A stretch of 64,000 nucleotides of DNA from Hyphomicrobiaceae bacterium (GCA_022844225.1 JALHMC010000015.1:11297-75296); one strand, 5' to 3'; positions 6,590 through 30,803 are shown, counted from the stretch's first letter. Notes: generated from the sequence alone by a model not told the origin. Numbers and translations: made by a program.

Positions 6590-6594
6590 AATCT

Positions 6595-7299: not shown

Positions 7300-7334
7300 C
7301 TCCTGGTCCGATTAACTTTGGGAAAAATCCATCA

Positions 7335-7664
7335 TTATCCTTGGGCGGAATCAAGAGATGGATCGCCCAGTCGGCGCAAACCGCACTCATCGCCCGCTTC
7401 AAGCCAGTGCATTGAAGCAAACGATGAATGTGAACGAATTTTCGAATTCAGGAGATCGATGGCCTGAACCAATGCCCCAAAAGAATCGACCTGCATACCC
7501 TGATGCCGGTAGGTGCTGCCATCTAGGCCCAAACCATCGATCTCGAATACAGCGGCCCAATCGTTTTGAACACGCTCTGGCTTGTAAATTCTTACCTCCA
7601 AGAGCTTCTCGCCATTCACCGTACGCAACACCAACTGGCGCGTGGCAATCAATTGCTGGCTCAT
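7335..7664 (-). CDS. putative immunity protein (copy 1 of a duplicated gene)
   Basis: Predicted protein identical to 6260-6589, with the same SD/ATG context. Confidence 0.6.
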   Translation of the reverse strand: MSQQLIATRQLVLRTVNGEKLLEVRIYKPERVQNDWAAVFEIDGLGLDGSTYRHQGMQVDSFGALVQAIDLLNSKIRSHSSFASMHWLEAGDECGLRRLGDPSLDSAQG

Positions 7665-7669
7665 AATCT

Positions 7670-10035: not shown

Positions 10036-10260
10036 TTAGCCGTCATCTTCACTGCTATGCGGATCGAGATCGGGAAACAATTTGACTACTGTTTGCACGA
10101 GCCCCTCGTAGAGCGCAGCTTGCGCTTCGGCAGCCGCTCGGCGAATTCCCTTTCGCACTTCTGGATCGTCTATGTCGTAGCTGATTTCAATGATTTGATT
10201 GAATACCTCACCGTATTTCTCATACTGAGCTATGATTAGTTCAGCAGTCGACTTTTTCAT
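10036..10260 (-). CDS. putative immunity protein for the CT at 10271-10703
   Basis: 74-aa AT-richer ORF starting 10 nt after the CT stop. Paralog of 5325-5546. Confidence 0.6.
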   Translation of the reverse strand: MKKSTAELIIAQYEKYGEVFNQIIEISYDIDDPEVRKGIRRAAAEAQAALYEGLVQTVVKLFPDLDPHSSEDDG

Positions 10261-10270
10261 TCTGTTGCAC

Positions 10271-11663: not shown

Positions 11664-12018
11664 CCTCTCGCAACAGCCCGCTGGAAGACCTACTGGTCAA
11701 CAGTGGTTGCCAACCCCATAGAAAACGGGGCCAACGAAGCGTGCGACATCATTTGGGTCAAGTCGTCGCAAGGTCGAGTGTGGCGAGCGCGCCGCGCTGA
11801 AAAACTTCTTCGATAGTTCGTCTGCAAAGGAGAAAAACGTAATTCTCCAGGTCCAACTTCGCCGAATGAAACGTCGTCTCTCTTGAAGCTTCAAGCGCTT
11901 GCTCGCGCCGGCTTCGAAACCGATCTCAATTGTGAAAAGCGGAACTCCTCGCGCACTCTGGCCTCGAGATTTTTTGGCGGTGATGCTTCACGCTTGTGAT
12001 CATGAACGCTGGAAACAT

Positions 12019-14583: not shown

Positions 14584-15738
14584 ATGCTCAACGATCTTCT
14601 GATCCGCAAATTGCCCGTACCGGCGGCGGGCGTCGCACAGCATCCCGACGGCAAACTGCCGGGGTTCGGCGTGCGCGTCACGGCCAACGGCGTCCGGTCC
14701 TTTTATCTGGCCTATCGCCATCAGGGGAAGAACCGGCGTCTCAACCTCGGGCGATACCCGACCACGTCTCTCCAGAAGGCACGAGGCAAAGCCTACGCCG
14801 CGCTCTCTGAACTTGAAGACGGCCGGGACCCGAGCGGTCACATCTCGAAAACGGAGACGTTCGCCGGGGCGGTCGATGCCTTTGTCTCGAACCATTGCCA
14901 GCGACATAATCGATCCAGCACGGCCGCTGAGACCGAACGCCTGCTCAAGGTCTACTTCCTTCCCGGTTGGAAAAACCGGAAGGTTGAGGCCATCACCAAG
15001 TCGGATGTGACGGAGGCGCTTGAGCCCGTCATCAAACGCGGCGCGCAGGGAGCAGCCCGGCACGCCTTTGCTGCCATCCGCAAGATGTTCAACTGGATGG
15101 TCGAGCAGGGCATGCTGGAAATCAGTCCGTGTACCGGCATGAAGGCGCCGGGAAAGCCCGGCAGCCGTGACCGCGTGCTCTGCGACGGCGAACTCGCACT
15201 GGTCTGGACAGCCGCTCTCGATATCGGCCTTCCTTTCGGGCCGATCGTTCAACTGTTGATGCTGACGGCACAACGGCGGGGCGAAGTCGTTGCCATGGCA
15301 TGGGACGAGATCGACGAAGCTCGCGCAATCTGGACCATACCGGGCGAGCGCACGAAGAACGGCAAATCCCATGCGGTGCCGTTGTCGGCGGCTGCGCTCA
15401 AGATACTCTCGCGCGTTCCAAGATCGAATTCGCCTTATGTTTTCCCGGCACGCGGCAAACCAGACCAGCCTTACGCCGGTTACTCGAAGGGCAAGCGCGA
15501 GCTCGACGCCGTCGCCGGCCTGCACGACTGGACGCTGCACGATCTCCGGCGTAGTGCAGCGACCGGCATGGCCAGCCTTGGGGTTGCGCCGCATGTTGTT
15601 GAGCGCGTACTCAACCACGTCTCGGGAACGTTCGCGGGCGTGGCAGGCGTCTACAACCGGTTCAAGTACGAAGATGAGATGCGCGAGGCGCTTAATCTCT
15701 GGGAACGCCATGTCATCAAATGCACAGCGCGCCCTTAG
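14584..15738 (+). CDS. int: tyrosine recombinase / integrase (P4-like, DUF4102-type N-terminal arm-binding domain)
   Basis: N-terminus GFGVRVTANGVRSFYLAYRHQGKNRRLNLGRYP. Catalytic region has LLMLTAQRRGEV (Arg), HDLRRSAAT (HxxR) and GVYNRFKY (Tyr). Confidence 0.95.
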   Translation: MLNDLLIRKLPVPAAGVAQHPDGKLPGFGVRVTANGVRSFYLAYRHQGKNRRLNLGRYPTTSLQKARGKAYAALSELEDGRDPSGHISKTETFAGAVDAFVSNHCQRHNRSSTAAETERLLKVYFLPGWKNRKVEAITKSDVTEALEPVIKRGAQGAARHAFAAIRKMFNWMVEQGMLEISPCTGMKAPGKPGSRDRVLCDGELALVWTAALDIGLPFGPIVQLLMLTAQRRGEVVAMAWDEIDEARAIWTIPGERTKNGKSHAVPLSAAALKILSRVPRSNSPYVFPARGKPDQPYAGYSKGKRELDAVAGLHDWTLHDLRRSAATGMASLGVAPHVVERVLNHVSGTFAGVAGVYNRFKYEDEMREALNLWERHVIKCTARP

Positions 15739-16201: not shown

Positions 16202-17617
16202 TCACATCTCGTTGCCAAAATCCCAGCCGGGATTCTGCCGCCGCCATTCCTCCATCTGCGTCTTGATCGCCGCAACCCGAGACATCTGGACGGGCGAACG
16301 GGTGTTGACAGCTTCGTTGAATTTCTCGGATGCCGGCACATCGGGCTGAGGCGGAGCTGGCAACGCGCGAGACTGCTTGCGCTCCGCGAGCAGTGTTTCC
16401 CTGGCAAGATCGAATGTCACAACAAACCGCAACTGGGATTCGTGCTCGCTTCTTGCCAGCTTCCGTTCTTCTGCCTGTCTGTCGCGAAGCGTGTCGAACC
16501 GATGCTTGTGCTGCTGCCAGATGCGTTCAGAGATCACCTTCTTCTCAGACTTCTCCGACCGCGCGAGGTTGCGCCGCTCCTTGTCGTGGACCGCTTCAAC
16601 CCGTTTCATGAGCCTGTCGGGCCTCAGGATGAGGCCCGCCATTTGTCTTAAGGTAAGGCGCTTGCCATCGCCCAACCGCTCGCGGTTCCTGAAGACGAAC
16701 ACGGCCCGCTCGAACGGATGCGTGGCGTCCTGCGCAAGCGATCTCTTCTCCTTATTGTGGGCGCGATAGAGGTCGCGCCACAGCGGACGGTAGCGGTCGG
16801 ATACGGTTGTTCTCGCATGGTCCACGGTGGCATGCGTTGAAACGTCGAGGTTGTCGCGCTCCTGAACCTGTCGTTTCCAAAGCTCATCAAGATTTGCAGT
16901 CGCCTTGCCTGGAAGGAGCGGCGCGATTTCCTTCCTCAGCTGTTTCATTCGGTCGATGATGTCTTTGCGGTCGAGCCAGTCCTCGCGCTGTGCGGATTTG
17001 TGCTTCACCGGGACGTAAGGCGGGGCATTTTGAATCTCGTCGAGACTAGCGCGCAGCAGCTCAGCGGACCGTTTTGCGATCTGAATGTTGTCGCGTGCCT
17101 CGTTGTTCTTGATCCGCTGATCGATATGGATGCCGTGTTGTTTTTCGTAGGCCTCCGCCCAACGGGACAGATGTTCCTTTGTGTACTTCAGCGGGGCGGT
17201 CATCCCGGTATTGGGATGGACGGTGTTGACGATGATGTGCACATGCAAATGATCCTTGTCGCTGTGCGCTGCCATCAGCGCCTGATGCTCATCGAGCTTG
17301 AGAGCCTTCAGGCTCGACAGGGCCGTCTCCCGCATGTGCTCAGGGCTTGGATTGTCGCTCGCGGCCCAAGACAGCGTGTAGTGGAGGACCGGCTTTGTGT
17401 TCTTGCGCCCGCGCGCGTCCTGCCCGGACTGTTGCTTGAGCAACGCCTGGTCGCGGGCGACGGTGAACATCTCCGACCATGCGTTTTCGGGTCGGGAGAG
17501 GAGATTGGCCGTCTCTGCCCAAAGCACCCGGTCAGTCGTGTCCTTGCCCGCGTCGTGCAGGATGTACCTGCACGCTCCTTTGAAAGACGTGCCGCGCTTG
17601 TGCAGGCGAGGGATCAT
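16202..17617 (-). CDS. relaxase/mobilization nuclease (MobA/VirD2 superfamily)
   Basis: N-terminal tyrosine region (GTSFKGACRYILHD) and the histidine triad HSDKDHLHVHIIVN. The start MIPRLHKRG at 17617 was chosen over the longer ORF. Confidence 0.9.
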   Translation of the reverse strand: MIPRLHKRGTSFKGACRYILHDAGKDTTDRVLWAETANLLSRPENAWSEMFTVARDQALLKQQSGQDARGRKNTKPVLHYTLSWAASDNPSPEHMRETALSSLKALKLDEHQALMAAHSDKDHLHVHIIVNTVHPNTGMTAPLKYTKEHLSRWAEAYEKQHGIHIDQRIKNNEARDNIQIAKRSAELLRASLDEIQNAPPYVPVKHKSAQREDWLDRKDIIDRMKQLRKEIAPLLPGKATANLDELWKRQVQERDNLDVSTHATVDHARTTVSDRYRPLWRDLYRAHNKEKRSLAQDATHPFERAVFVFRNRERLGDGKRLTLRQMAGLILRPDRLMKRVEAVHDKERRNLARSEKSEKKVISERIWQQHKHRFDTLRDRQAEERKLARSEHESQLRFVVTFDLARETLLAERKQSRALPAPPQPDVPASEKFNEAVNTRSPVQMSRVAAIKTQMEEWRRQNPGWDFGNEM

Positions 17618-18029
17618 TGGACGGGTTCCTCGGGCTGAGGGCTTCGGCGATCTGTTGCACGAACATCTTCTGTGGATCGGGCAACTGTGGCGGTGTGGCA
17701 GACACCTGCTCGCCGAGTACACGCAGCAGGTCGCGCGCCTGGCGATAGGCGAACTGCACATCCGGCGGGAGATTGCTGTTCAGGGCATGGGCAACCTGAT
17801 TGACGTTATTGCCGATGCGGCGCAGCTCCTGCAACAGGGCCGGGTCCATCGGCTCTGGTCCGCGCGTGGCTTCGACCTTGCCATCGCAGACCAGCCGTTC
17901 ACAAAAACCGGATACGCTCAGACCGGCGCGGCGGGCATCGATGGTACAGCGCAAATGCTCATCGGGCGTGAGCCGTATCGTGACGGTCTTGCTGCGCGGA
18001 GCAGTCGCGTGTGTCCGATGCCTCGGCAT
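17532..18029 (-). CDS. mobC: MobC-family relaxosome accessory protein
   Basis: RHH-like N-terminus (KTVTIRLTPDEHLRCTIDARRAGLSVSGF) and the MobC motif LRRIGNNVNQVAHALN. It lies immediately upstream of the relaxase gene and overlaps it. Confidence 0.85.
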   Translation of the reverse strand: MPRHRTHATAPRSKTVTIRLTPDEHLRCTIDARRAGLSVSGFCERLVCDGKVEATRGPEPMDPALLQELRRIGNNVNQVAHALNSNLPPDVQFAYRQARDLLRVLGEQVSATPPQLPDPQKMFVQQIAEALSPRNPSNDPSPAQARHVFQRSVQVHPARRGQGHD

Positions 18030-18172: not shown

Positions 18173-18597
18173 ACATCTCGCTACCCCACGCTTTAGGGTG
18201 CTGCGTATTCGCAAACGTTTCACCCGTGGTTTGTAATTTATTCCCAAGTTTTTCGTTTTAGCCATTTGTTTATTTTTCATACGATCATTGCGAAACATGG
18301 CAATACCCCGCAGGTCATAACGGCTCATGCCAAAACTTTTCCAATAACGACGATTATGATAATGCGCGCCTGCGTGCGTATGCGCGACGGCGCGAGCAGG
18401 TCTAAATCCAACGCCGACAACGCGGCGTAGCCTGGCGTCGGCAAGAATAATTTGAGCGAGACTTCGCGATACATCGCGTGGCGCTACTGCACATCGTTGA
18501 ACATGGCGAACGTTTACAGCCTGACTTGCGATTGATACTTTTATCGAATTGCCGGGCCGTGCTGCGTTCGCCCGTTTCATCTCAAGGAGACAAGCGA

Positions 18598-19971
18598 ATG
18601 CTCGACGGAGAGTTTCCGCCGCGCGGCTCCGGCGTTCCCGGCCGACTGGAATCCCCGCCCTCTGCTGTATGGGCTCATCCATGGACGCTCGGCGCGGGCT
18701 GGGATTGGAAGCCGGGCATGGTGCTGCTTGGATCGCATGAGAAGCGTATCATCGGGTTCGATGACGACCGGCACGTGGTGACCGTTGCGGGCAGCCGCGC
18801 TGGCAAGTCGTCGACCGTGCTGATCCCTAACCTGTTGCGCTATCCGGGCTCGATCGTCGTCCCCGATCCCAAAGGCGAGCTTGCGCTTGCGACAGCAGCG
18901 CAACGAGCCCGAATGGGCCAGCGGGTGATGATCCTCGACCCGTTCAATGTGACGGGGCTGCAAACGGCCTCGCACAATCCAATCGCGGAGCTCGGGCAGG
19001 GGCGGCCCGAGCATGTGGCAGCGGACGCAGCGCAGCTAGCGGACGCGCTCATCGTTTCGAATGCCAAGGACCCGCACTGGACGGACAGCGCCAAGAACCT
19101 GCTGCGGGGAATCGTCCTGCATCTGCTCTCGACGCAGGCGAACGTCACGTTGCGCGAGGTCCGGAGGTACCTCTGCGCAACGCCGCCGGAGCTCAGCGAA
19201 CTGTTTTCGGCAATGACAGAGTCCAATGCCTATGACGGCGTGGTGGCCAATATAGGCGCATCGCTGCTGGGCAAGCTCGAAGCGGGCGGGAGAGAATTGC
19301 AAAGCATTCTCTCGACCGCGCAGGAGCAGACGGCGCCGCTCGATGACATTGTCGGTATGACGGAGACGAGTGATTTCCGGCTGACTGATCTTCGGTCGGG
19401 CAAGCTCACTTTGTACCTGGTGCTGCCGGGTATGCGCATGGGGACGCATTACCGCTGGCTGAGGCTGGTGATCCAGCTGGCGTTGGCCGCGATGGAGCGC
19501 GCACCTGTGCCGCGCGGGCAGCTGCCGGTGTGGTTCGTACTCGAAGAGTTTCCGGCGCTCGGCCACATGCGATCGATCGAGACCGCCGCCGGCCTCATGG
19601 CCGGGTTTGGCGTCAAGCTGTGGAGTGTTCTTCAGGACCTCACACAGCTTCAGACGCACTACCCGAAATCCTGGGAAACGTTCATGGGTAACGCCGGGGT
19701 CGTGCAGGCCTTCGGCAACGCGGACATCACGACGACCGAGCATCTTTCGAAGATGCTTGGGTCGACGCAGGTGATGGAGCGACAGGACATCCGCGTGTCG
19801 GCAAGCGCGATGAGCCAGGGCGACAGTGGACGGCGTGAGCACGTCCGCAATGTCCGCCTGCTCGATGCCAACGAGATCACGCGACACTTCTCGCGCGAGT
19901 CAGGAAGACAGCTGATCCTCGTGCCGGGCCGTCCGCCGATCTATATGCAGCGCCTACAGATCCCGAACTGA
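18598..19971 (+). CDS. VirD4/TraG-like type IV coupling protein ATPase domain, no N-terminal TM segments
   Basis: Walker A is VVTVAGSRAGKSSTVLIPNLL and Walker B-like is VWFVLEEFPALG. AAGGAG SD lies before the ATG at 18598. The N-terminal 70 aa are hydrophilic. Confidence 0.85.
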   Translation: MLDGEFPPRGSGVPGRLESPPSAVWAHPWTLGAGWDWKPGMVLLGSHEKRIIGFDDDRHVVTVAGSRAGKSSTVLIPNLLRYPGSIVVPDPKGELALATAAQRARMGQRVMILDPFNVTGLQTASHNPIAELGQGRPEHVAADAAQLADALIVSNAKDPHWTDSAKNLLRGIVLHLLSTQANVTLREVRRYLCATPPELSELFSAMTESNAYDGVVANIGASLLGKLEAGGRELQSILSTAQEQTAPLDDIVGMTETSDFRLTDLRSGKLTLYLVLPGMRMGTHYRWLRLVIQLALAAMERAPVPRGQLPVWFVLEEFPALGHMRSIETAAGLMAGFGVKLWSVLQDLTQLQTHYPKSWETFMGNAGVVQAFGNADITTTEHLSKMLGSTQVMERQDIRVSASAMSQGDSGRREHVRNVRLLDANEITRHFSRESGRQLILVPGRPPIYMQRLQIPN

Positions 19972-19992
19972 CAAAGAAGGAGGATCAGAACG

Positions 19993-20598
19993 ATGTACCG
20001 ATTTTATACTGATGCGTTCGTGCTTGAGGATGATGAGTCGGTGCTGCACGCGGCGACGGTCCGGTGGTCGCAGGATCGCGCCGAAGACTCCCAGTTCCTG
20101 ATGCAGCTGCAGATGCTGATCGTAGGCAGCGTGTTCGCGATCATCTTCCTTCTGTCGTTCGAGCCGCGCGAAGCTGCGGTGATGATACAGGCTGCGATCG
20201 GCCTCGCAGCCCTGGAAGTTCTCATTCTGCTATTCGGTCACCGGCTTTGTACGGTGCACCGCAAGCTTACCTTCCATCGCGATGGCAGCGTCGTGATGCC
20301 AGGCGGTTGGTTCAATCGGGAAACAGTCGTGGGATACCATGACGCGGGTACCACGATCCAGGCGCAGCAAACGGAAGTCCTGAAACCGGAGCAGCATCGC
20401 CCGAAAAAGTTTGAAGTCTGGCTCTACTTCGCGGAAGGGCATTCATTTCCGATCGCCGAAGAACTTTCACAACAGCAGGCACACGAGGTGACCGTGCAGC
20501 TGACGCGCGCCCTTCAGTTGGTGAAATCCGCTATGGCCCGCTTGCCGCAGGATCGTATGGGCGACAAGCCCAACTGGGGCTACGCGACCGTCGAGTAG
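19993..20598 (+). CDS. hypothetical two-TM membrane protein
   Basis: GGAGGA SD; starts 22 nt after the T4CP gene ends. Hydrophobic helices are LIVGSVFAIIFLLSF and AAIGLAALEVLILLFG. Confidence 0.6.
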   Translation: MYRFYTDAFVLEDDESVLHAATVRWSQDRAEDSQFLMQLQMLIVGSVFAIIFLLSFEPREAAVMIQAAIGLAALEVLILLFGHRLCTVHRKLTFHRDGSVVMPGGWFNRETVVGYHDAGTTIQAQQTEVLKPEQHRPKKFEVWLYFAEGHSFPIAEELSQQQAHEVTVQLTRALQLVKSAMARLPQDRMGDKPNWGYATVE

Positions 20599-20655: not shown

Positions 20656-20844
20656 CTATCCTACAACCTCCCCGCCAAACGTCTCGATGCAGCCATAGCG
20701 ATTGCGGAAGTCGAATAAGGCTTTCTCGGCGTCGTCTTCATAGAAGCCTCGGTTGAGGCTTTCGCGGTAGCGGATCGACGTTTCGAAGAGATCGATGACC
20801 TTCATTGCTTCGGTAAGTTTGGCTCGCAGTTCTCGGGACGTCAT
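20656..20844 (-). CDS. small hypothetical protein (paralog of 20841-21005)
   Basis: The C-terminal motif FDFRNRYGCIETFGGEVVG resembles FFRNRNGCIETGSWEVAS of the upstream gene. The start overlaps that gene's stop (ATGA). Confidence 0.5.
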   Translation of the reverse strand: MTSRELRAKLTEAMKVIDLFETSIRYRESLNRGFYEDDAEKALFDFRNRYGCIETFGGEVVG

Positions 20845-21005
20845 GACGCGACCTCCCAGCTTCCTGTTTCGATGCAGCCATTGCGGTTGCGGAAGAAGGT
20901 TTCCCCGTCGAGATCGTAAAGGTCATCGGCCCGGAAGATCTGGCGCTCGATGCGTGCCTCGTAATCGTCGTCGGCGGTGGCGCGGGAGGAAGGGGAGGGG
21001 GTCAT
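20841..21005 (-). CDS. small hypothetical protein (54 aa)
   Basis: Only the last 54 codons of the 259-aa ORF look coding. The ATG overlaps the stop of 21002-21226 (ATGA). Confidence 0.5.
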   Translation of the reverse strand: MTPSPSSRATADDDYEARIERQIFRADDLYDLDGETFFRNRNGCIETGSWEVAS

Positions 21006-21226
21006 TGCTGACCCCCAGTGCCGGTGACTTCGGCGTCCTTCTCGGTGTTGAGGCGGATGGCGACGCGGCCCTGACCTGCGGGATAGGCATCGAACACGAG
21101 GCTGAAGCCCTGCTTGTCCTTGTGCTGCCAGGCGGCGCCGATCTTGGTCCAGTACTCTTTTTCGTCGTCGCCCTGGATGACATAGATGCTGTGGGTCGGA
21201 CGCTTGGTCGGTGGGTTGTCGGTCAT
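21002..21226 (-). CDS. small conserved hypothetical protein (paralog of 26871-27137)
   Basis: PTHSIYVIQGDDEKEYWTKIGAAWQHKDKQGFSLVFDAYPAGQGRVAIRL aligns with PSHIAYTTRQSGEKTFWNACGAAWAHKDGKGFRIKLDAVPVNGVIELR. Confidence 0.6.
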   Translation of the reverse strand: MTDNPPTKRPTHSIYVIQGDDEKEYWTKIGAAWQHKDKQGFSLVFDAYPAGQGRVAIRLNTEKDAEVTGTGGQQ

Positions 21227-21316
21227 GATGTACTCCGTTCTTGGTTTCGAGGCGCGGGCACAACGCCCGTCCTGATGGGACCGAACAAACCGCGTCCGCG
21301 GAGCGGGTCAGACGGG

Positions 21317-21374
21317 CAACACGGGAGCGCCCGGGTCTCCCCCGGGGCGCGAATGGAGCGGGCAGCCCGTTGAC
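21317..21374 (-). promoter_or_regulatory. conserved 58-nt leader/promoter motif, copy A
   Basis: Plus strand: caacacgggag-[gcgcccggg tctcc cccggggcgc hairpin]-cgaatggagcgggcag-N4-ttgac. It lies 90 nt upstream of the ATG at 21226. Flanks are identical in copy B (51478-51535). Confidence 0.5.
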
Positions 21375-21754
21375 CCATAGCGACCGGATGCGGTTAGGCC
21401 CCATCCTTGAAGGACGGGCGGAGCACCGCGCCGGGATCAATCGCGAAGAACGGTTTTCATGAGTGCGGCAAAGACCGAATGTTCTGCGCTGACGGCGCGC
21501 CATCGACTGCGAAGTCACACTGTGCTGGACCGAGGAGACACGCGGCGCAGGGGCAACATGCGCCTTCGAAAGTGGAGCCGGATTCCTCAAGGATTTGGAG
21601 CGCCGGTTTCCGCCGAACAATCGGAACGCCAGTAAATTCGGGCTGGTTCAGCATGGCGAATTTGTGATCCGGCCTTCCGACCGCGACGTCATTGCTTTTC
21701 GACTGCGCTGCGCACGATTAGCTTCCGCACGATGCATGCAGCGGAGAAACGCGG

Positions 21755-22486
21755 ATGTCATCTCAACTCTCACGACGACATTTTATCGGCAGCGGTATCG
21801 GTCTTGCGGGAATGTCGCTGACGCTCGATCCGAGAATCACCTGGCTGCGCCCGGCCACTGCAGGAACAGACGCCAGTTCATTCGTGGCTAACCACATGGC
21901 GCGGCTCGAAAGGTTTCATGCGCGCTTCCTGGAAGCCGATAATGCCGACCTCGCCAGCATCGAGCAGTTCCAGGATTGGCAGAGGCAATACGATAGGCTT
22001 GTCGGCGCAGCCGACACCGTTCGTAAAGCAATAACAGACGACACCCCGGACCGCGACGCGCTCGTCCAGAAGGCGAGGACGTATGTCGAGCCTTCCTGTG
22101 GGCGAGCGATCCTGTACTGGCGGCCGATAGAGGACATGAGCCAACCGTTCGAAGGTCGCATTTACACATTCTTCGCGGCGCGAACGGACTGGATTTGCAG
22201 TATCGCGCAACGCGCTTGCGACCCCGACATCGATTTGCGGGTCTCTGCCGTGGTTGACGCAAGCAGTGCCGTGCGCAGCGCCATGCCGGCGACGCGCGGC
22301 GACCGCTCCGCCATGCGGCGCGTGATCGAAGCGTTTCGCAACGACGACATGGTCGACGTTTCCATTGTTCGTGGCTCGCTTGAGGAACACCAGGTTCGCA
22401 GCTTCCGCGACTGGGCGCGCCCGTGCGGAAGCTTCAACTGCAAACACTGCGAGGCCTGGCTTAATAATGTGGAGGACTTGACATGA
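21755..22486 (+). CDS. hypothetical protein with twin-arginine signal-like N-terminus
   Basis: MSSQLSRRHFIGSGIGLAGMSLTL. First gene of a five-gene overlapping operon. Confidence 0.6.
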   Translation: MSSQLSRRHFIGSGIGLAGMSLTLDPRITWLRPATAGTDASSFVANHMARLERFHARFLEADNADLASIEQFQDWQRQYDRLVGAADTVRKAITDDTPDRDALVQKARTYVEPSCGRAILYWRPIEDMSQPFEGRIYTFFAARTDWICSIAQRACDPDIDLRVSAVVDASSAVRSAMPATRGDRSAMRRVIEAFRNDDMVDVSIVRGSLEEHQVRSFRDWARPCGSFNCKHCEAWLNNVEDLT

Positions 22487-22986
22487 CAGCATCGAGCGTA
22501 ACCGGCCATAGCGGCGTCCCAACGATCAGTCGCAGGCAACTCTTCAAGGGCAGCACCGCCTCGGTGGTCGCGTGCACCGCCGCGACAGCGGTTTCGCTCA
22601 GGTTTGCGGCAGCACCGGCAGCGGCGCAGCCTTTGCCGCTGTCCTACAAAGGCATGTTCAACGACATCATCGATGTCTGCGCGCGGTACCATTGGACGAC
22701 GCGTGCCGCAGTCCTTTCGGAAAGCCGTGAGCGTCACGTCGTAAAGGCGCGACAGGCCGCCATGTATATTTCCCGGCGACTGACGCGTCGATCCCTTCCG
22801 GAAATCGGCCGACGCATGGGCGACCGCCTTCACACGAAGGTTCTGTATAGCGACAGCAAGATAACGGCGCTGGTCGAGCGCGATCCCATCACGCGGCAAT
22901 CGATGGAACGGCTGACAGATGCCTGCCTTGCCATCGCGCGGTGGCGGATTGCAGAGGGCGCTGAGACCGGGGAATACGTGGGATGA
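22483..22986 (+). CDS. twin-arginine signal-like N-terminus fused to a DnaA domain IV (Bac_DnaA_C)-like HTH
   Basis: N-terminus SRRQLFKGSTASVVACTAATAVSLRFAAAPAAAQP. It is followed by VVKARQAAMYISRRLTRRSLPEIGRRMGDRLHTKVLYSDSKI, compared with the DnaA pattern RQIAMYL.RELT..SLP.IG..FG.RDHTTV. Confidence 0.7.
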   Translation: MTASSVTGHSGVPTISRRQLFKGSTASVVACTAATAVSLRFAAAPAAAQPLPLSYKGMFNDIIDVCARYHWTTRAAVLSESRERHVVKARQAAMYISRRLTRRSLPEIGRRMGDRLHTKVLYSDSKITALVERDPITRQSMERLTDACLAIARWRIAEGAETGEYVG

Positions 22987-23492
22987 TCACGCCCCTGACG
23001 CGTCGGGCCTTCGTTCAAACGGCGTCCTGCGGAGCAGGCGCCGTCATCGGCTGCTGCACTTTACGTTCATTGCCCGCGCCGGGCGAAGCCCGGTTCGTCG
23101 ATTTGGCAGACACATGGCGACAGACGACGCAGCGGTACTTGCACGTCGTGCGAAGCCGGGTAGGCGGGGCGGCCTTTCTGGCTGCACGCAACGCGGCGGC
23201 ACGCGCCTCGATACGGCTTCTCGATGCCGCGAGCGAACTGCCCCGCGACGTCCTCGTCAAATACTACGTGCTTTACGAAAGCATGCACTTCACGTCCTTC
23301 GATCTGGACTTTTCGGAATCGCGGTTCGATGCCTGGTGCAACGACGCGGCGCGCGAAGCGAAGGCATTCGGCCTGACCGTCTCGCCATTCTGGTGGACGA
23401 TGCGAAGCGATCCCAATCCTCGGATCAATGGCACGAAAGAGAAATCGACGACAGACTGGAACGAGGTGAGACCATGGCTGATCCGGCGCTAG
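22983..23492 (+). CDS. hypothetical protein with twin-arginine signal-like N-terminus
   Basis: MITPLTRRAFVQTASCGAGAVIGCCTL. ATGA overlap with the upstream gene. Confidence 0.6.
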   Translation: MITPLTRRAFVQTASCGAGAVIGCCTLRSLPAPGEARFVDLADTWRQTTQRYLHVVRSRVGGAAFLAARNAAARASIRLLDAASELPRDVLVKYYVLYESMHFTSFDLDFSESRFDAWCNDAAREAKAFGLTVSPFWWTMRSDPNPRINGTKEKSTTDWNEVRPWLIRR

Positions 23493-24289
23493 GCAACACC
23501 GTGCGGCCGGCGACGTCTCCGCCGTGGCTCCCGCGGAAGGCGTTGATGGAGGTTGCAAAGGGCAACCCCAAAGCCGCGGACGCGGCGCGGGCGCTGTCCA
23601 AAGCCGCGCGCAAGTTCGAGCGGCTCGATGGAGAATTCAGGATAGGAACTACCTATTCATGGACTGTCGCTTATGAGGAACTGCTCGATTTGGCGGAGCA
23701 TGTTCGATACCTGCTCAAGCGACCTAGGACTGGCTATGAACGCGACCTGCTCGCCTGGTCTAAGCAGGTCTCACCCTCGAAGGGCGAGATCGCGAGCAGG
23801 CCATGGGAGCCTATTGAAGGCCTGAGTCCTCACCTTGCGTGGCTGCAGGTTCTTTTCGAAGCTGCGCTGTTTCGCGCGGCGCGTGCATGGCTTCCTTTCT
23901 CATGGGTCACCTTCAACGGATACCAAAATCCATTGTGTGAGCATCAGAAGATATATCTCGCTCTCCACGACGCAGACTGGCGCCTGCAGCAACTCACCTA
24001 CCATATGATCTGGCGCGCGATACCCTGGAACGAGGCCGACAGGCTGCTGATCCGCCGCGCCCACCAGACGAGACGACTGGGAATCAAGGTCTTTCGCCTT
24101 AAGTATCGGCGCGCCGTTCGCAAATGGGAGCGCGCGCAAGGGCTTTACCTGCCGGAGCGGAGCATCCGGAAACCGGAACGACTGAGAATGATCTGGCTCA
24201 ACTACGACACCGGAAACCCGCTCATGAAATTCCCCATCTCCGAGAGATCGCTGAACAAGCTCGTCCTGAGGTATCTGCCCAATGACTGA
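23474..24289 (+). CDS. hypothetical Trp-rich protein (no signal-like N-terminus)
   Basis: The ATG at 23474 follows GAGGTGAG and overlaps the upstream gene by 19 nt. The upstream part of the 456-aa ORF is out-of-frame overlap with two other genes. Confidence 0.55.
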   Translation: MADPALGNTVRPATSPPWLPRKALMEVAKGNPKAADAARALSKAARKFERLDGEFRIGTTYSWTVAYEELLDLAEHVRYLLKRPRTGYERDLLAWSKQVSPSKGEIASRPWEPIEGLSPHLAWLQVLFEAALFRAARAWLPFSWVTFNGYQNPLCEHQKIYLALHDADWRLQQLTYHMIWRAIPWNEADRLLIRRAHQTRRLGIKVFRLKYRRAVRKWERAQGLYLPERSIRKPERLRMIWLNYDTGNPLMKFPISERSLNKLVLRYLPND

Positions 24290-25040
24290 GCTGACGCGCC
24301 GACAAATCGGGATAGGCGCACTATCGCTGCTGGCAGCGTCAGCCTTCCCGGCGACGTTTGCAAAGATCGTGGCATCGCTCGATGCGGGTGACCAGTTCGA
24401 ACGCCACCAGGGCGAATGGATACGAGAGATTGCGGAGCTCTACGCTGAATTTCGCCGCGTCGATCGCGATTTCTTCGTCGACCAGGATGCGCGAGACACG
24501 TTTCCGCTTGCGCACTATGAGCTGGCAAGCCAATCGCAGACCTTGCGGATCGACCCGCTTGGAGACCGGCACACGAAGTGGGCCATCCGCTCGTGGATTG
24601 ATACGCTCTATCCGAGTCCCGCAGTGCGCGCATTTCACGTACACCAACCGCTGCGTAACTTGAGCAAGGCATTCGCCGAACGACAAGCGGAGCTGGATGC
24701 TGTCACAGACGAGCTGGGCGAGGCCGAATATCTAGGCGCATTGTATTGGCACCGGACTTCCTGGGACTCGATTTCCAGCCAGGGCTACTGGACTTCGATC
24801 CAGACCAGGGTCGACAAACTTCTGCGCAGGCAGGACAGGGTGTCATCAACCTTCTCTTCGGGGCTGACCGTGGAAACCCACGACGACAAGACCGCGGCGT
24901 ACCGCGCATCAATGACATACCAGAGCCATTACTGGGAACGTAAGCTGAATGCGCGCCGGACCTGGCGGCTTCGGAATCATGCCGGAGCTCCATCCCACAT
25001 CCGGGCGGCGATTTCCCGCTCATCAGGGCCAACCGCCTGA
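24282..25040 (+). CDS. hypothetical protein with twin-arginine signal-like N-terminus
   Basis: MTELTRRQIGIGALSLLAASAFPATFA-K. Overlaps the upstream gene by 8 nt. Confidence 0.6.
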   Translation: MTELTRRQIGIGALSLLAASAFPATFAKIVASLDAGDQFERHQGEWIREIAELYAEFRRVDRDFFVDQDARDTFPLAHYELASQSQTLRIDPLGDRHTKWAIRSWIDTLYPSPAVRAFHVHQPLRNLSKAFAERQAELDAVTDELGEAEYLGALYWHRTSWDSISSQGYWTSIQTRVDKLLRRQDRVSSTFSSGLTVETHDDKTAAYRASMTYQSHYWERKLNARRTWRLRNHAGAPSHIRAAISRSSGPTA

Positions 25041-25576
25041 AGGTAGATTGCCGTCGTGCTCATGCTCGCGTGTCCCAGCCATCGCTGTACGAAGTTCAAC
25101 GGCACACCGGAGCGAACGGCGTGCAGACCGAATGCGTGTCGCAGACCCTTTGTCGTCGCATGCGGGCCGGAGCGAATACCGGCTGTGCGCATCATCTCCT
25201 TCACTAGCTGCCAGGCTCGAACGCGGCCGCAACGCCATAGCCGGTCTTCTGTGCTGGAGCACTTTTCAGCCAGGACGACCAGATCGGACAACACCGCATC
25301 AGGCACCGGGACTTCGCGTACGACAACGAACTTCGATCTCTTCTTGAGGCTGCGGAAAGCAATCACGCCCTCCGCCGGGCGCAACGAATCCGGTGTCAGC
25401 GCCAAAGCTTCAGAGACCCGGCAGCCAGTGTGCGCAAGGGTCAGGCAGAGAAGCTTCAGCGCAATCGGCGCCGCCGTGGCCGCGCTGATGAACCGACGAC
25501 GCTCGGCCGCGTCCAGATACTTCCGGGCGCCGGTCGCGGTGTGAAGACTGAGGATGCTCTGTTGTGGTGCCTGCAT
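24977..25576 (-). CDS. small tyrosine recombinase (catalytic domain only)
   Basis: Catalytic residues in LAHTGCRVSEAL (Arg), GLRHAFG (HxxR-type) and WLGHASMSTTAIY (His/Tyr). The start is uncertain because the ORF is open to 25666. Confidence 0.85.
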   Translation of the reverse strand: MQAPQQSILSLHTATGARKYLDAAERRRFISAATAAPIALKLLCLTLAHTGCRVSEALALTPDSLRPAEGVIAFRSLKKRSKFVVVREVPVPDAVLSDLVVLAEKCSSTEDRLWRCGRVRAWQLVKEMMRTAGIRSGPHATTKGLRHAFGLHAVRSGVPLNFVQRWLGHASMSTTAIYLQAVGPDEREIAARMWDGAPA

Positions 25577-25854
25577 GTGCGTGTCGGAGGCGTCACTGCA
25601 GAGTCGGAAAGTGGGTGTGTGCATTTGACAGTGTTGGGCATTCTGTTGCCTCCCGCCCCACACCAATTGCCACGTTGATCGAAAGTGCTGTTTTCCCGTT
25701 TCTGCTTTGACGCTTTAACAGGATAGCTCGAAGTTCTGCTTTAAAACCAGCAACGTAAACAGAGTGCCCAATTCTGTTTCATGCGCGCCCCTGCAAAACA
25801 AGTGACGACCTTTCCATAGTGTCGTCTGATCCCGAACAGGGGGGAGCCCGGAAG

Positions 25855-26870: not shown

Positions 26871-27137
26871 TTGCCGACTGCCACTGCCGAAACTCAATCT
26901 CAGGACACCAACAAGAAGCCCAGCCACATCGCCTACACGACGCGCCAAAGCGGCGAGAAGACATTCTGGAACGCGTGCGGAGCCGCATGGGCCCATAAAG
27001 ACGGCAAGGGCTTCCGCATCAAGCTCGACGCCGTGCCGGTCAACGGCGTGATCGAGCTCCGGACCAACGATCCGAAGACACCGAACGACAACACCCCGAT
27101 CGACTGGTCCAATTTCTCAGACGTCTCCGGTCAATGA
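26871..27137 (+). CDS. small conserved hypothetical protein (paralog of 21002-21226)
   Basis: TTG start preceded by AGGGGGA. Its stop overlaps the ATG of the next gene (ATGA). Confidence 0.6.
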   Translation: MPTATAETQSQDTNKKPSHIAYTTRQSGEKTFWNACGAAWAHKDGKGFRIKLDAVPVNGVIELRTNDPKTPNDNTPIDWSNFSDVSGQ

Positions 27138-28792
27138 TACCGTCGCGAATACCAGCTGAGATGCTGCGTAAGGCCTTGCTGGCGATGGTTGGCTTGATGC
27201 TCATGTCAGCATCGGCACTTGCCGCGACTCCGGCATTCAGCGTCCACAAGAACGGAACGGCGCAAACCGTCGTTGTTGACACGCCAACCAAACTGACGTG
27301 GTCGACGGAAGTCATCGACACCAACACAAACTTCGCGACTGACCAGTTCACCCCCACGGTCGCGGGCAACTATCTCATCGTCGCTTCCGTGCAATGCGCG
27401 CAACCCGGAGCCTGTGTCCCGGCCATCTACAAAAATGGCGCGCTCTACGCTGCCAGCCGTCAGACGAACCAAACCTTCGCAGATCAATCGCCTCAGGTAA
27501 GCGCAATCATTAGCATGAACGGCTCGACCGATTACGTCGAAGCCTTCGCGACCTCGTCGGGCTCATCCATTGGCGGAGTAGCAACGCAAACTTATTTCAG
27601 CGGCTCTCAGATAGATGGGGGAGGAGCAGGTGGAGGCGGCGGTGGCACGCGTGCCCATGCGCGATTTAACGGCACCACGGCAGCAGTAATTCACAGCTCA
27701 AACGTCTCCGGCATCACGCGCAACAGCGCGGGGCGCTATACGCTGACATTTACGACAGCCTTGCCCAATACGAATTACGTAGTTCTGGCGACCGCAGAGA
27801 ATCCCTCGAGTGATGCTCGCATCCTCAACGAGACGACGAACCGCACGATGACTAGTTTTGTTGTTCAGTTCCAGAACACCAGCGGCACCGCCGTCGATCC
27901 GGACTTTGTGGATATTGCTATACTCGGAGAGGCGACCGCGGGAAGCGGTTCATCTCAGTGGTCCGATGGTTCCGCTGGCGCGATCTACTACAACGCGGGC
28001 AACGTCGGAATCGGGACGACGACGCCGGGCGCCAAACTTTCAATCAAAGAGGCAGGTACGGGGCATATTAATATGGGCCAGCTGAGCGGTAACACGCTCT
28101 ACGGCGCACTTGGCTTCTCGCAGACTTCCGGGGCAGTGACAGCGGCAAACTATTCTATGGTCGGTGAGGGCTCTAATACCCTTATAAACCGTTCAACTGG
28201 TGGCATAATCGAATTCCGCGAGAGCAACGTCGGGCAGATGACCATCGCAGCCGGAGGCAACGTCGGCATCGGGACGGCCTCTCCGGATACCAAGCTCGAA
28301 GTCGCAGGAACTATCTCGGCAACCATCATCGTCGCCGCACCGCCGATGATGATATTGGCGGATGAAAAGGCATCCGGAACGGCGGGAGGGACATGCACGG
28401 CCGGCTCATGGATGACCCGAACGCTCAATACGGCACGGGAGAACTCCATCACCGGAGGGTCGCTAGCAAGCAATGAGGTGACGTTGCCTGCCGGCAAATA
28501 TCTTGTCCGTGCCCGTTCGCCCGGTTTGGGCAATAACCGCTTCCAAGCCCGACTTTTCAATGTGACCGATGGGACGGCGATAGCCTATGGCACGAGCGAG
28601 TACGGTTCGAGTACGGCTCCGCTGACGCAACAGGAATCGTGGGTAATAACAACTTTCACGATCGCGGCACAAAAAGTCATTCGGATCGAGCACAGGTGTC
28701 AGGTAACACAAGGAACAAACGGGTTCGGTATTGAAGCCAACTTGGGTGGTACGGAGGTTTATGCCACCCTCGAAATCACCAAGTTCCAGTAG
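27134..28792 (+). CDS. secreted modular fibre/adhesin-like protein (C1q-like N-terminal domain, Gly linker, tail-fibre-like repeats, C-terminal jelly-roll-like domain)
   Basis: Signal peptide LLAMVGLMLMSASALAA. C1q-like pattern: FSVHKNG...FTPTVAGNYLIVASV...IYKNGALY...YFSGSQI. The GNVGIGTTTPGAKL / GNVGIGTASPDTKL motif occurs twice. Confidence 0.7.
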   Translation: MIPSRIPAEMLRKALLAMVGLMLMSASALAATPAFSVHKNGTAQTVVVDTPTKLTWSTEVIDTNTNFATDQFTPTVAGNYLIVASVQCAQPGACVPAIYKNGALYAASRQTNQTFADQSPQVSAIISMNGSTDYVEAFATSSGSSIGGVATQTYFSGSQIDGGGAGGGGGGTRAHARFNGTTAAVIHSSNVSGITRNSAGRYTLTFTTALPNTNYVVLATAENPSSDARILNETTNRTMTSFVVQFQNTSGTAVDPDFVDIAILGEATAGSGSSQWSDGSAGAIYYNAGNVGIGTTTPGAKLSIKEAGTGHINMGQLSGNTLYGALGFSQTSGAVTAANYSMVGEGSNTLINRSTGGIIEFRESNVGQMTIAAGGNVGIGTASPDTKLEVAGTISATIIVAAPPMMILADEKASGTAGGTCTAGSWMTRTLNTARENSITGGSLASNEVTLPAGKYLVRARSPGLGNNRFQARLFNVTDGTAIAYGTSEYGSSTAPLTQQESWVITTFTIAAQKVIRIEHRCQVTQGTNGFGIEANLGGTEVYATLEITKFQ

Positions 28793-29226: not shown

Positions 29227-30132
29227 TCAGCCTGGTGGCTGTAGAGCCCTGAGGTAGGCTGCTGCCTCGGATGCCTTTGCAGCGGCGGTGAAGATCGCCC
29301 GGCTATCCGACTTGAGAAGCTTGAGCCACTGCGCCAGGTACTGCGCATGATCGGCCCGGACGTCCTGCGTGATGCCCAGTTCCGCGCAAAGGATCGCTGA
29401 ACCGATCTCGGCCACAAGCTCTTCAGCCGCGTAGGCGTTGTCACCGAAACGCTTGCCGAAATCGCGGTTGAGGCGGTGCTTGGCACCCGACCAGTGCGTC
29501 AGCTCATGAATGAGAACGGCGTAGTACCCCTCGGTCCGCGTCATCGTTTCGGTGCCGCAGAACAGCTCCTCGCTCGGCATGTGGATGCTATCGGTTGAGG
29601 GGCGAAAGAAAGCGCGTTCGCCACCATGTGCGATGACAGCGCCCGTTCCGCTGACGAAACCGTCAACACGAGCGATGCGTTCGACGGGACCAAGAGAGGG
29701 TGCTGCATCCGGTGCGGTATATCCTTCGACCTGGTCGGCGTTGAAGACCCACGATGCGCGCGCAACGCGGCGCTTCCCGTCATCGTCGGCGGACTCAGGA
29801 TCGGGAGCAATCTCGTACTGCTTGTAGAAGACGACGAGCGATGAGCGTTCGCCCTTGCGGACCTGGCAATCCATCTCAAGCCATTGCTTGTAAGTGGCCC
29901 AGACCGGTTGGCTGTACCCAAGGCATTCGGCAGAGACCCACAGATTGACGACGTTGATGCCGTTGTAGGCTTTGCCCGTCAGCGCGTTGACCGGCATGAA
30001 CATCGGACCCTGCGATCGGCGCCACGGAAGTGTGGGCTTTCCCGGATCGGATTCGATTGCGGCGACGAGCTTGTCGGTGACTTCGGCATGGATGTCGCGG
30101 CGCGGTGTTTCGGTTGATGCATGAGTTCGCAT
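29227..30132 (-). CDS. ardC: ArdC-like antirestriction protein (ssDNA-binding N-domain + zincin metallopeptidase)
   Basis: The N-domain has LPWRR...PVNALTGKAYNGINVVNLW ... WATYKQW. The HExxH motif is LIHELTHWSG. Start MRTHAST at 30132. Confidence 0.9.
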   Translation of the reverse strand: MRTHASTETPRRDIHAEVTDKLVAAIESDPGKPTLPWRRSQGPMFMPVNALTGKAYNGINVVNLWVSAECLGYSQPVWATYKQWLEMDCQVRKGERSSLVVFYKQYEIAPDPESADDDGKRRVARASWVFNADQVEGYTAPDAAPSLGPVERIARVDGFVSGTGAVIAHGGERAFFRPSTDSIHMPSEELFCGTETMTRTEGYYAVLIHELTHWSGAKHRLNRDFGKRFGDNAYAAEELVAEIGSAILCAELGITQDVRADHAQYLAQWLKLLKSDSRAIFTAAAKASEAAAYLRALQPPG

Positions 30133-30216
30133 GAGATCGGCCCTTCGCTTTTCCCGGACCGCCCTGAGTGGCGGTCTCGATGCCGGGCGAAGGCGACGGC
30201 GGATGAGCGGATGCGG

Positions 30217-30277
30217 AACCGAGCCGGGAGGCGAGGCGGCCCGGCCTGCCGGAAAGCCGAGGGCGTGAGCCCTTGAA
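30217..30277 (-). promoter_or_regulatory. diverged third copy of the leader motif, upstream of ardC
   Basis: gaaccgagccgggag-[GC-rich segment]-cggaaagccgagggcgtgagcccttgaag. It lies 85 nt upstream of the ATG at 30132. Similarity to copies A and B is partial. Confidence 0.3.
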
Positions 30278-30803
30278 GCATGCGCGCGCCGGCGCAGCAT
30301 CGGCATCATGAAAAGACCGTCACTGGCGGGAGTGCGGAAAGTGAACGCAGCTCGATCGATGGAAGAGATGAAGCTGTGTGCCGCTAGGGCCAGCCGAGAC
30401 GCGGATCGAAAGTGGTAGAGGGAAATGCGGACGCGTTGCGCGTGACGGAGCTGAACACAGTGGCTCGGACATCCAGAACCGGCGGCAGCTGCCGTTTGGC
30501 GGCCCCGTCAAAATCTTGCATCACGTCTACGGAATTCTTGCCGCCGCCAGCCCTTACGCATCTTCAGTACGGCATGCAGGCTGGCAGCCTGCGTAAGCCG
30601 TTGCCGCTCTCCGAGCTCTTGTACAAAGTCCTCCAGGATCGCCCGCCACTCTAACTCGCCCATACGTCCAGGGTATGAATCATATAGCGGACGATGGGAT
30701 ATCACTCTCGCAGCAAGGTCAGTACTCATGTGCTTGCAGGATTGGCCACCGCAATGCAGCGACTCCGGGCTTTAGAAAGCATCGGGGAAAACGGGGAATA
30801 CTC

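Follow-up and report, generated by a model that had tools for sequence, protein, structure and literature searches.

A translationally coupled five-gene operon in an apparent mobilizable element, four products of which begin with twin-arginine-type signals

A tight cluster of five plus-strand genes was analysed within a 64,000-nucleotide stretch of DNA from a Hyphomicrobiaceae bacterium (GCA_022844225.1 JALHMC010000015.1:11297-75296), hereafter the window. A reading made from the sequence alone had described it as a translationally coupled operon with four products carrying N-termini that resemble twin-arginine (Tat) signals, located in the backbone of a mobile element between a small-gene operon and a convergent tyrosine recombinase. 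These observations were confirmed. The region is organized as follows, with the five products designated P1-P5.

18478-20598, plus strand: a TraG/VirD4-type coupling protein (18478-19971; Pfam T4SS-DNA_transf, E=2e-62) and a conserved ~201-aa membrane protein (19993-20598), which always precede the block in related elements.
20656-21226, minus strand: an operon of three small genes (62, 54 and 74 aa), divergent from the block and conserved in relatives; the last has only a sub-threshold, unsupported similarity to DUF736 (Pfam E=0.078, 13.3 bits against a cut-off of 22.1).
21227-21754: a 528-nt divergent intergenic region between the small-gene operon and P1, with no ORF of note.
21755-22486, plus strand: P1, 243 aa, a Tat-type signal followed by an acidic domain predicted to be all-alpha.
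22483-22986, plus strand: P2, 167 aa, a Tat-type signal followed by a DnaA domain IV helix-turn-helix.
22983-23492, plus strand: P3, 169 aa, a Tat-type signal followed by a small basic helical domain.
23474-24289, plus strand: P4, 271 aa, very basic, without a signal peptide.
24282-25040, plus strand: P5, 252 aa, a Tat-type signal and an Arg-rich C-terminal tail.
24977-25666, minus strand: a small tyrosine recombinase (Phage_integrase, E=3e-19; 215-229 aa, of invertase-like size), convergent with P5, overlapping its 3' end and conserved next to the block in several relatives.

Start and stop codons of the five genes overlap by 4, 4, 19 and 8 nt, which was read directly from the sequence as ATGA at 22483, ATGA at 22983, 19 nt at 23474-23492 and 8 nt (ATGACTGA) at 24282-24289. 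Independent gene callers make the same five calls on identical public contigs. The intergenic region upstream of P1 presumably holds the promoter of the block, though a scan for consensus sigma-70 elements found nothing there; it does contain a conserved structured element at about 21300-21400, comprising repeat D6 and supported by covariation. A relaxase gene, like the coupling protein, lies further upstream. No ORF of VirB4 size is present in the window, and the whole looks like an integrative mobilizable element rather than an ICE.

The N-termini of four products follow the consensus [ST]RRx[FLI], with the first Arg at residue 6-7 in P1, P3 and P5 and at residue 17 in P2. In P1 the motif SRRHF is followed by HFIGSGIGLAGMSLTL, and residues 1 to about 37 form the signal (LSRRHFIGSGIGLAGMSLTL). 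In P2 the motif SRRQLFK precedes GSTASVVACTAATAVSL and a site AAA/QP, the signal being ISRRQLFKGSTASVVACTAATAVSLRFAAAPAAA followed by QP. P3 has TRRAF and AFVQTASCGAGAVIGCCTL (signal LTRRAFVQTASCGAGAVIGCCTL), while P5 has TRRQI and QIGIGALSLLAASAFPATFA followed by K (signal LTRRQIGIGALSLLAASAFPATFA, then K). The uncharged stretches behind the twin arginines are 16-20 residues long with a mean Kyte-Doolittle hydropathy of 1.24-1.44, which is typical of Tat rather than Sec signals. To estimate how exceptional such N-termini are, we applied a simplified rule of our own, different from TatFind, which demands a motif with RR starting within about the first 40 aa and then an uncharged stretch of at least 13 aa with a mean hydropathy of at least 0.6. 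Of 167 six-frame ORFs of at least 100 aa in the window only four passed, and they are exactly P1, P2, P3 and P5. This is not a chance pattern. Sites of AxA type are clear in P2 (AAA/Q; AMA/Q and AIA/Q in orthologs) and P5 (TFA/K) but not in P1 and P3, and basic residues lie in the c-regions of P2 and P3. Curated short models gave only weak hits, all below their cut-offs: PF10518 in 4 of 30 family members (best E=0.011), TIGR01409 in 2 of 30 (best E=0.14) and TIGR02811 (formate_TAT) at the N-terminus of P2 (E=1.5e-3). A profile of the P1/P4/P5 superfamily searched against PDB sequences hit, also weakly (E from 0.0098), the N-terminal signals of proven Tat substrates among a scatter of equally weak unrelated hits; the best-scoring were MelC1 caddie proteins, and others of this class were a two-domain laccase, the NapA signal peptide 2pq4_B, the AioB Rieske subunit and 8grj.

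The families turned out to be very rare, with 30 representative clusters among 1.84 billion proteins. The block recurs in 8 divergent elements with the same backbone, composed of a relaxase, a TraG-like coupling protein, a ~205-aa protein, small antisense genes and then the block, the start/stop overlaps being retained, although its composition varies from 2 to 7 genes. Across these elements 29 of 33 block proteins carry RR plus an h-region, and no signal-bearing protein has KR, RK or KK instead, which holds down to about 22-30% identity in the mature parts. By family, the RR signal is kept in 12/12 P1-like, 8/8 DnaA_C-like, 3/3 P3-like, 3/3 P5-like and 3/9 P4-like proteins. R7 is invariant and R8 is at least 90% conserved in the P1 family, and RR is invariant in the P3 and P5 families, while the h-regions drift in sequence. 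Proteins without a signal occur only in the P4 subfamily and always alongside signal-bearing paralogs; P4 itself lacks one, but the more distant P4-like proteins P0018, P0021, P0023 and P0029 carry LTRRQFG signals. Conservation of the RR motif and of gene order therefore supports the sequence-only interpretation.

That interpretation can be corrected and extended. It held that apart from one HTH domain no mature part resembled anything recognizable, but P1, P4 and P5 proved to be paralogs of one unannotated family. Profile-profile comparison by hhalign over about 200 columns gave 99.5% (E=1.4e-22) for P4 against the P1 family, and 99.0% (E=8e-18) and 98.7% (E=3e-16) for P5 as a paralog of P1 and P4, though part of this score comes from the shared signal region. 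The AF2 model of P1 (pLDDT 86.1) leaves residues 1-39 disordered and folds 40-236 into nine helices with pLDDT above 90. P3 is unrelated, since its hhalign match to the P1/P4/P5 profile is limited to the signal region; its AF2 model (pLDDT 63.8) has a helical core at 38-130. No fold match was found in PDB or BFVD. No hit of P1, P3, P4 or P5 reached a curated cut-off in Pfam, NCBIfam or PHROGs; P3-P5 had none at E<=0.1, and P1 had only far-sub-threshold ones (e.g. the NsdA model, 20.5 bits against a cut-off of 830). The PADLOC-DB models of anti-phage defence systems gave no hit at E<=0.1 for P1-P5 or their neighbours. It had also been stated that no cofactor-binding motif typical of Tat substrates is visible, whereas a possible cofactor or disulfide motif does exist: P1-like proteins conserve C115 plus C224-x4-C229-x2-C232. 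Invariant positions of the P1-like proteins are R7, W75, Y79, S129, D183, R189, C224, C229 and C232.

The HTH of P2 was confirmed as a genuine DnaA domain IV by Pfam Bac_DnaA_C (PF08299, E=7.2e-19, 68 bits against a cut-off of 31.5, profile positions 2-69 of 69), by the C-terminus of TIGR00362 (E=4e-20) and by PDB 1j1v (E=3e-10), with residues 60-146 aligned. P2 is not a full-length DnaA, as only positions 349-435 of 437 of the DnaA model are matched, at 72 bits against a cut-off of 344, and domains I-III, including the AAA+ ATPase, are absent. Family members are 150-190 aa long, and every member in these elements has the N-terminal Tat-type signal, which DnaA never has. Equivalents of R399 and R407 are invariant and P423 is nearly so, and most members keep RDHTTVLHA, so that most of the positions that probably contact DNA are conserved across the family. 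The copy in the window, however, reads RLHTKVLYS and has lost two of them (D433 to L and H439 to Y).

Nothing like this block is catalogued, but partial parallels exist. Tat "hitchhiker" operons, such as Streptomyces MelC1 caddie/MelC2 tyrosinase, HybO/HybC hydrogenase or DmsA/DmsB, share the S/T-R-R-x-F consensus, a weakly hydrophobic h-region, an AxA c-region (clear only in P2 and P5) and the encoding of signal-bearing and signal-less partners in one operon. They differ in the absence of homology in the mature parts and of any recognizable redox enzyme or cofactor-binding family here, in the mobile-element setting and in the presence of the signal on 4-5 different products of one operon. A functional analogy only can be drawn with integrative mobilizable elements that supply envelope proteins to reshape the conjugation apparatus of a helper (SGI1 homologs of TraN/TraH/TraG; bioRxiv 10.64898/2026.01.12.698999 for the helper pilus) and with the entry-exclusion proteins TrbK, Eex and TraS; no sequence or fold similarity to any T4SS subunit or exclusion protein was found. 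The closest sequenced relatives of the coupling protein (45-47% identity) belong to small Rhodobacterales plasmids, e.g. of Roseivivax marinus (NZ_CP090156.1) and Pelagovum pacificum (NZ_CP065917.1), with the same MobC/relaxase/TraG/~190-aa gene arrangement. These plasmids replicate (RepA, ParA) and have no RR block, no DnaA_C gene and no integrase, and a tblastn search with P4 against plasmids found nothing. The block is therefore not needed for mobilization as such.

Based on these data one can assume, with a probability of about 0.55, that the five genes form one backbone operon of a family of integrative mobilizable elements, which carry an integrase, a MobC/relaxase pair and a TraG-like coupling protein but no mating-pore genes, and that P1, P2, P3 and P5 are made with cleavable signal peptides and exported already folded by the host Tat system to the periplasmic side of the inner membrane. 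P1, P4 and P5 probably assemble into a hetero-oligomer in the cytoplasm, where the acidic P1 may pair with the very basic P4 (pI 10.2, net charge +19) and may first acquire a Cys4-bound metal. Folding and assembly before export would explain why Tat is used rather than Sec. P4 would then be either carried out as a hitchhiker or left behind as a cytoplasmic partner, and its charge fits a cytoplasmic nucleic-acid binder equally well. In the envelope the complex would serve the transfer biology of the element, with interaction with or remodelling of the helper's mating apparatus, exclusion, or handling of DNA in the periplasm as candidate roles. Tat export, signal cleavage, complex formation, metal binding and the envelope function are inferred; the curated Tat models score only weakly, and the host Tat genes lie outside the analysed data. 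Against this reading speaks the unexpected export of P2, since a DnaA-box-type domain has no obvious periplasmic rationale, DNA is normally cytoplasmic, and conservation of most contact positions in the family argues that it does bind DNA.

Tat substrates are normally cofactor enzymes or cell-wall and envelope proteins. An operon in which essentially every product is Tat-tagged, one of them a stand-alone DnaA domain IV, would add a new class of Tat cargo and a new functional module of mobilizable islands, even if its rarity in databases limits its general reach. If the DNA-binding domain really works outside the cytoplasm, this points to DNA handling in the periplasm during transfer; if not, to export-controlled regulation. 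Either way, the P1/P4/P5 family has a confidently predicted new all-alpha fold with no annotated relative. A bolder view, rather unlikely at present, is that the block is a new kind of mobile-element machinery, in which the DnaA-type domain is deliberately sent through the Tat pathway together with the hetero-oligomer. It would either build a periplasmic DNA-handling or helper-T4SS-hijacking complex, or use Tat export, which depends on proton-motive force, as a switch controlling how much of a DNA-binding regulator stays in the cytoplasm, thereby coupling envelope energetics to activation of the element.

Among alternatives, the one that survives best, though it remains doubtful, is that the RR N-termini are uncleaved signal anchors, inserted by Tat, as with Rieske proteins, or by Sec/YidC, so that a membrane-bound complex with helical domains at the periplasmic face resides next to the coupling protein. 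The weak or absent AxA sites in P1 and P3, the Arg or Asp that directly follows several h-regions instead of a clear cleavage motif, and the constant neighbourhood of the coupling protein and the ~205-aa membrane protein favour this. However, the h-regions are rich in Gly, Ala, Ser and Thr and are only 13-20 residues long with a mean hydropathy around 1-1.4, which is marginal for a stable transmembrane helix, and clear AxA/Q sites are conserved in the P2 family.

Somewhat less likely, the functional site is the cytoplasm and export is a control device. P2 and P4 would act on DNA, for example on element or host promoters or DnaA-box-like sites, while Tat export continuously removes or titrates them, until loss of proton-motive force, Tat saturation or DNA binding keeps them inside and switches the programme of the element; in a weaker form, the RR leader is only a membrane-association or chaperone-binding tag. 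This is in line with the equivalents of R399, R407, P423, D433, H434 and T435 kept across the P2 family within the motif GGRDHTTVLHA.RKI, with the basic character of mature P2 (pI 9.9) and P4, and with the position of the block in the regulatory, backbone part of the element beside a divergent small-gene operon and a recombinase. But no precedent is known to us, no DnaA box (TTWTNCACA) occurs anywhere in the window, the P2 of the window has lost two contact residues, and it is not explained why all the non-DNA-binding paralogs also carry the signal.

Delivery into recipient cells in two steps, by Tat to the periplasm and then by the helper's type IV secretion system, with P2 and its partners acting on DNA to help the element establish, is improbable. 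The element does encode its own coupling protein immediately upstream, a DNA-binding domain makes sense in a recipient's cytoplasm, and the Arg-rich C-termini of the P5 family (NARRTWRLR, NARRRRWLRLQ) may loosely resemble VirB/D4 C-terminal signals, but the argument is purely analogical, coupling-protein substrates are normally recruited from the cytoplasm, no Tat-to-T4SS route is described to our knowledge, and P1 and P2 lack such tails. Finally, the possibility that the ORFs or their starts are miscalled, or that the RR stretches are untranslated or a chance product of G+C-rich sequence, to which the ~60% G+C of the window, its many spurious long ORFs and the failure to find a consensus promoter might point, is effectively refuted by the exclusive passage of the four block ORFs through our rule, the conserved start/stop overlaps, the confident AF2 model of the mature domain and the conservation of the N-termini at the protein level in homologs of 22-68% identity from independent metagenomes.

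The five ORFs of the operon are real and lie where the sequence-only reading placed them, all on the plus strand:
21755-22486, plus strand, P1 (243 aa)
22483-22986, plus strand, P2 (167 aa)
22983-23492, plus strand, P3 (169 aa)
23474-24289, plus strand, P4 (271 aa)
24282-25040, plus strand, P5 (252 aa)

Consecutive genes overlap by ATGA at 22483 and at 22983, by 19 nt at 23474-23492 and by 8 nt at 24282-24289, and the same five genes were called independently on identical public contigs (NCBI GCA_001464285.1 LNFA01000231.1, JGI 3300002461 and four Logan assemblies). The reading frame of P4 stays open for 185 codons upstream of its start (22919-24289, plus strand), running across all of P3 in another frame. 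The upstream translation has no signal-like segment and is not conserved as protein. It is probably a G+C-rich open frame, but the start of P4 rests, therefore, on homology and the overlap pattern rather than on the ORF boundary. P1, P2, P3 and P5 begin with SRRHF, SRRQLFK, TRRAF and TRRQI, respectively, and each motif is followed by 16-20 uncharged residues with mean Kyte-Doolittle hydropathy 1.24-1.44. We applied a simplified Tat-like rule of our own, which is not TatFind. Only 4 of 167 six-frame ORFs of at least 100 aa in the window satisfied it, and they are exactly these four, which is far beyond chance.

P2 is a genuine DnaA domain IV and nothing more. It was registered by Pfam Bac_DnaA_C with E=7e-19, above the gathering score, while the DnaA equivalog model matched only by its last ~90 positions and PDB entry 1j1v (E. 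coli DnaA domain IV) matched at E=3e-10. The N-terminus of P2 weakly matches the “formate dehydrogenase region TAT target” model (E=1.5e-3). In contrast, P1, P3, P4 and P5 reach no curated cut-off in Pfam, NCBIfam, PHROGs or PADLOC, and the idea of a defence system received no PADLOC support. P1 alone gave weak sub-threshold hits, to NsdA (NF050130, E=1.4e-4, 20 bits against a cut-off of 830) and T3SS_needle_E, but they occur in 1 of 30 family members and were treated as chance. An exhaustive phmmer search of 1.84 billion representative proteins with a concatenated P1+P3+P4+P5 query, which found nothing in a word-indexed search, revealed only 30 relatives for these four proteins together: 13 P1-like, 3 P3-like, 10 P4-like and 4 P5-like. 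No source gives them a name beyond “hypothetical protein”. Two scans of genome contigs with the close and the distant P1-family alignments found no relative, and a metagenome scan gave one locus. In the plasmid collection blastn of the block hit only a chromosomal dnaA gene of Shinella, and tblastn of P4 found nothing.

Pairwise blastp showed no significant similarity between the five proteins, and it was only with family profiles that P1, P4 and P5 were recognized as paralogs. In hhalign the P1 family aligned to the P4 family with probability 99.5% (E=1.4e-22) and to the P5 family with 99.0% (E=8e-18), while the P4 family aligned to the P5 family with 98.7% (E=3e-16), each alignment covering about 200 columns. 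Part of the score comes from the shared signal, but the alignments run through the whole mature domain, and a merged alignment keeps a common skeleton of W75, Y79, (G)LS129, D183 and R188-R189. P3 is unrelated to this family, as only its signal region aligns. With the merged 30-sequence alignment AlphaFold2 gave a confident model of P1 (mean pLDDT 86.1, pTM 0.78), in which residues 1-39 are disordered and residues 40-236 form nine helices with pLDDT above 90. Foldseek found no relative of this model in the PDB (best E=0.22, TM at most 0.28) or in BFVD (best E=0.33). The model of P3 is weaker (pLDDT 63.8) and shows a helical bundle without a match in the PDB, no hit of either model being better than E=0.2. 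P1-like proteins conserve four cysteines, C115 (15 of 16) and invariant C224-x4-C229-x2-C232, which is a candidate metal site or a pair of disulfides and was missed in the sequence-only reading, where no cofactor-binding motif typical of Tat substrates had been noticed. Mature P1 is acidic (pI 5.3), while P2, P3 and P4 are basic, P4 extremely so (pI 10.2, net +19).

Both the signal and the synteny are kept in relatives. Contexts were recovered for seven further, divergent elements, designated L007, L009, L011, L013, L014, L016 and L019-21. In every case where enough flank is present, the block follows the same backbone: relaxase (and MobC), TraG-like coupling protein, a ~201-207-aa membrane protein and a few small minus-strand genes. 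It is often followed by the small tyrosine recombinase, a ~290-aa secreted protein, an Imm_superinfect protein, a tail-fibre-like protein and ArdC. The composition of the block varies from the same five genes in the same order (L013) to seven (L007), four (L019) or three genes (L009, L016), or DnaA_C plus one P1-like gene (L014), and start/stop overlaps of 4, 8 or 13 nt are retained. Scanning of all eight elements with family HMMs gave 33 block proteins. RR plus an h-region was found in 12/12 P1-like, 8/8 DnaA_C-like, 3/3 P3-like, 3/3 P5-like and 3/9 P4-like proteins, with manual correction for L009 and for a false positive in L007. Among the database representatives it is present in 12/13 P1-like, 3/3 P3-like, 4/4 P5-like and 4/10 P4-like proteins. 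It is always RR, while the h-regions differ in sequence, as expected for a signal selected for its properties rather than its sequence. In the P2 family canonical AxA|Q sites recur (AAA|Q, AMA|Q, AIA|Q). When the family profile was searched against all PDB sequences, the best-scoring ones among a scatter of equally weak hits were MelC1 caddie proteins, and a recurring class was represented by N-terminal signals of established Tat substrates: MelC1, a two-domain laccase, the NapA signal peptide, the AioB Rieske subunit and an entry named “twin-arginine translocation pathway signal”. Curated short Tat-signal HMMs gave only sub-threshold hits, so the assignment to the Tat pathway so far lacks formal predictor support.

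The most surprising feature is a DNA-binding domain placed behind a conserved, cleavable-looking Tat-type signal in 8 of 8 divergent elements. Judging by the alignment with 1j1v, the P2 family keeps most of the residues presumed to contact the DnaA box in the 1J1V complex. Equivalents of R399 and R407 are invariant, P423 is nearly so, and most members read GGRDHTTVLHA.RKI, although the window copy has diverged at two positions (D433 to L, H439 to Y). DnaA boxes (TTWTNCACA) were searched for as possible targets of P2, but none was found anywhere in the window.

The module is a backbone operon of what appears to be an integrative mobilizable element, other parts of which are as follows:
14584-15738, P4-type integrase
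16202-17761, relaxase
18478-19971, TraG
29227-30309, ArdC

No VirB4-sized ORF is present in the window. Most likely the products of the operon are folded, and probably assembled, in the cytoplasm and exported by Tat, while signal-less P4 either hitchhikes or stays inside. We assign a probability of about 0.55 to Tat export of a folded set or complex, and a function in the envelope (interaction with a helper T4SS, exclusion or periplasmic DNA handling) is inference only. The closest sequenced relatives of the coupling protein lie on small Rhodobacterales mobilizable plasmids with the same MobC-relaxase-TraG module, and these plasmids lack the block. The block is therefore not part of the minimal mobilization machinery but an addition specific to the integrative lineage. 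Among other explanations an uncleaved membrane anchor survives best but is unlikely, followed by a cytoplasmic DNA-binding function with export as a control device, which is more doubtful still, while a two-step delivery to recipients seems remote. An artefact is practically dismissed, since the N-termini and the start/stop overlaps are conserved in relatives.

The signals look like Tat signals and P2 is a member of the Bac_DnaA_C domain family, while nothing else can be filed under any known family: there is no match reaching a curated threshold, no structural relative, and nothing relevant in the literature searched for Tat in connection with DnaA_C, conjugation or exclusion. No described ICE, IME or plasmid module of this architecture was found. 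Although its function is unknown, its export is unproven and it is rare in public data, we regard it as categorically new as a module.

The small tyrosine recombinase at 24977-25666 (minus strand; 215-229 aa) overlaps the 3' end of P5 by 64 nt and is conserved beside the block in several elements. It has no N-terminal arm-binding domain and gives weak matches to DNA-invertase models. An invertible promoter driven by it was considered, but six independent assemblies are collinear with no inversion, and only short, weak inverted repeats are present.

A conserved structured element of about 60-100 nt occurs in the intergenic region upstream of P1 (21300-21400) and again at 51461-51551. Both copies lie 80-91 nt upstream of minus-strand gene starts, one being the 74-aa gene with only a sub-threshold similarity to DUF736 and the other a ParB-like gene. 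A third copy sits at the equivalent place in the distant element L016 (5790-5900), and the element was also noticed at ~90-103 of the locus designated L017. It has invariant unpaired boxes AACACGGGAG and GAATGGAGCGGGCAG, and two stems keep pairing through compensatory changes (GCGCCCGGG/CCCGGGGCGC against GGCCCC/GGGGCC, and ACGGGC/GCCCGT against ATGCCC/GGGCAT). No Rfam family matches. Most likely it regulates the minus-strand genes, but it could also affect the divergent promoter of the block, and it could be a 5' UTR, an operator or a single-strand-promoter-like element of “early” backbone genes.

The product of this 74-aa gene (21002-21226, minus strand; DUF736 hit with E=0.078, 13.3 bits against 22.1), which belongs to the small-gene operon divergent from the block, looks by eye like a paralog of a small protein encoded at 26871-27137 (plus strand), as both carry K(R/K)P(T/S)H(S/I)..Y..W...GAAW.HKD..GF. 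A similar 89-aa protein follows the block in L019. A 45-nt direct repeat (20666-20710 and 20851-20895, 80% identity) inside two adjacent small minus-strand genes indicates that the 62-aa and 54-aa genes are tandem paralogs. The gene at 26871-27137 lies just upstream of that for a 552-aa protein (27134-28792, plus strand) with an N-terminal hydrophobic leader and strong matches to phage tail-fibre families (phrog_24210, E=1e-29). Relatives carry larger versions with Peptidase_S74 and PTL_trimer domains, and inside a mobilizable island such a protein could be an adhesin used for mating or recipient recognition. An array of repeated cassettes of about 1.1-1.5 kb (5200-11700, minus strand; families D1-D5, 74-100% identity) overlaps ORFs with SpvB and RHS matches, which suggests an Rhs/toxin locus with alternative C-terminal cassettes. 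Finally, a 1312-aa protein encoded at 58534-62472 (plus strand) contains TPR repeats and the PIN domain of the TPR-GreAB-C-PIN system (PF20698, E=7e-17).
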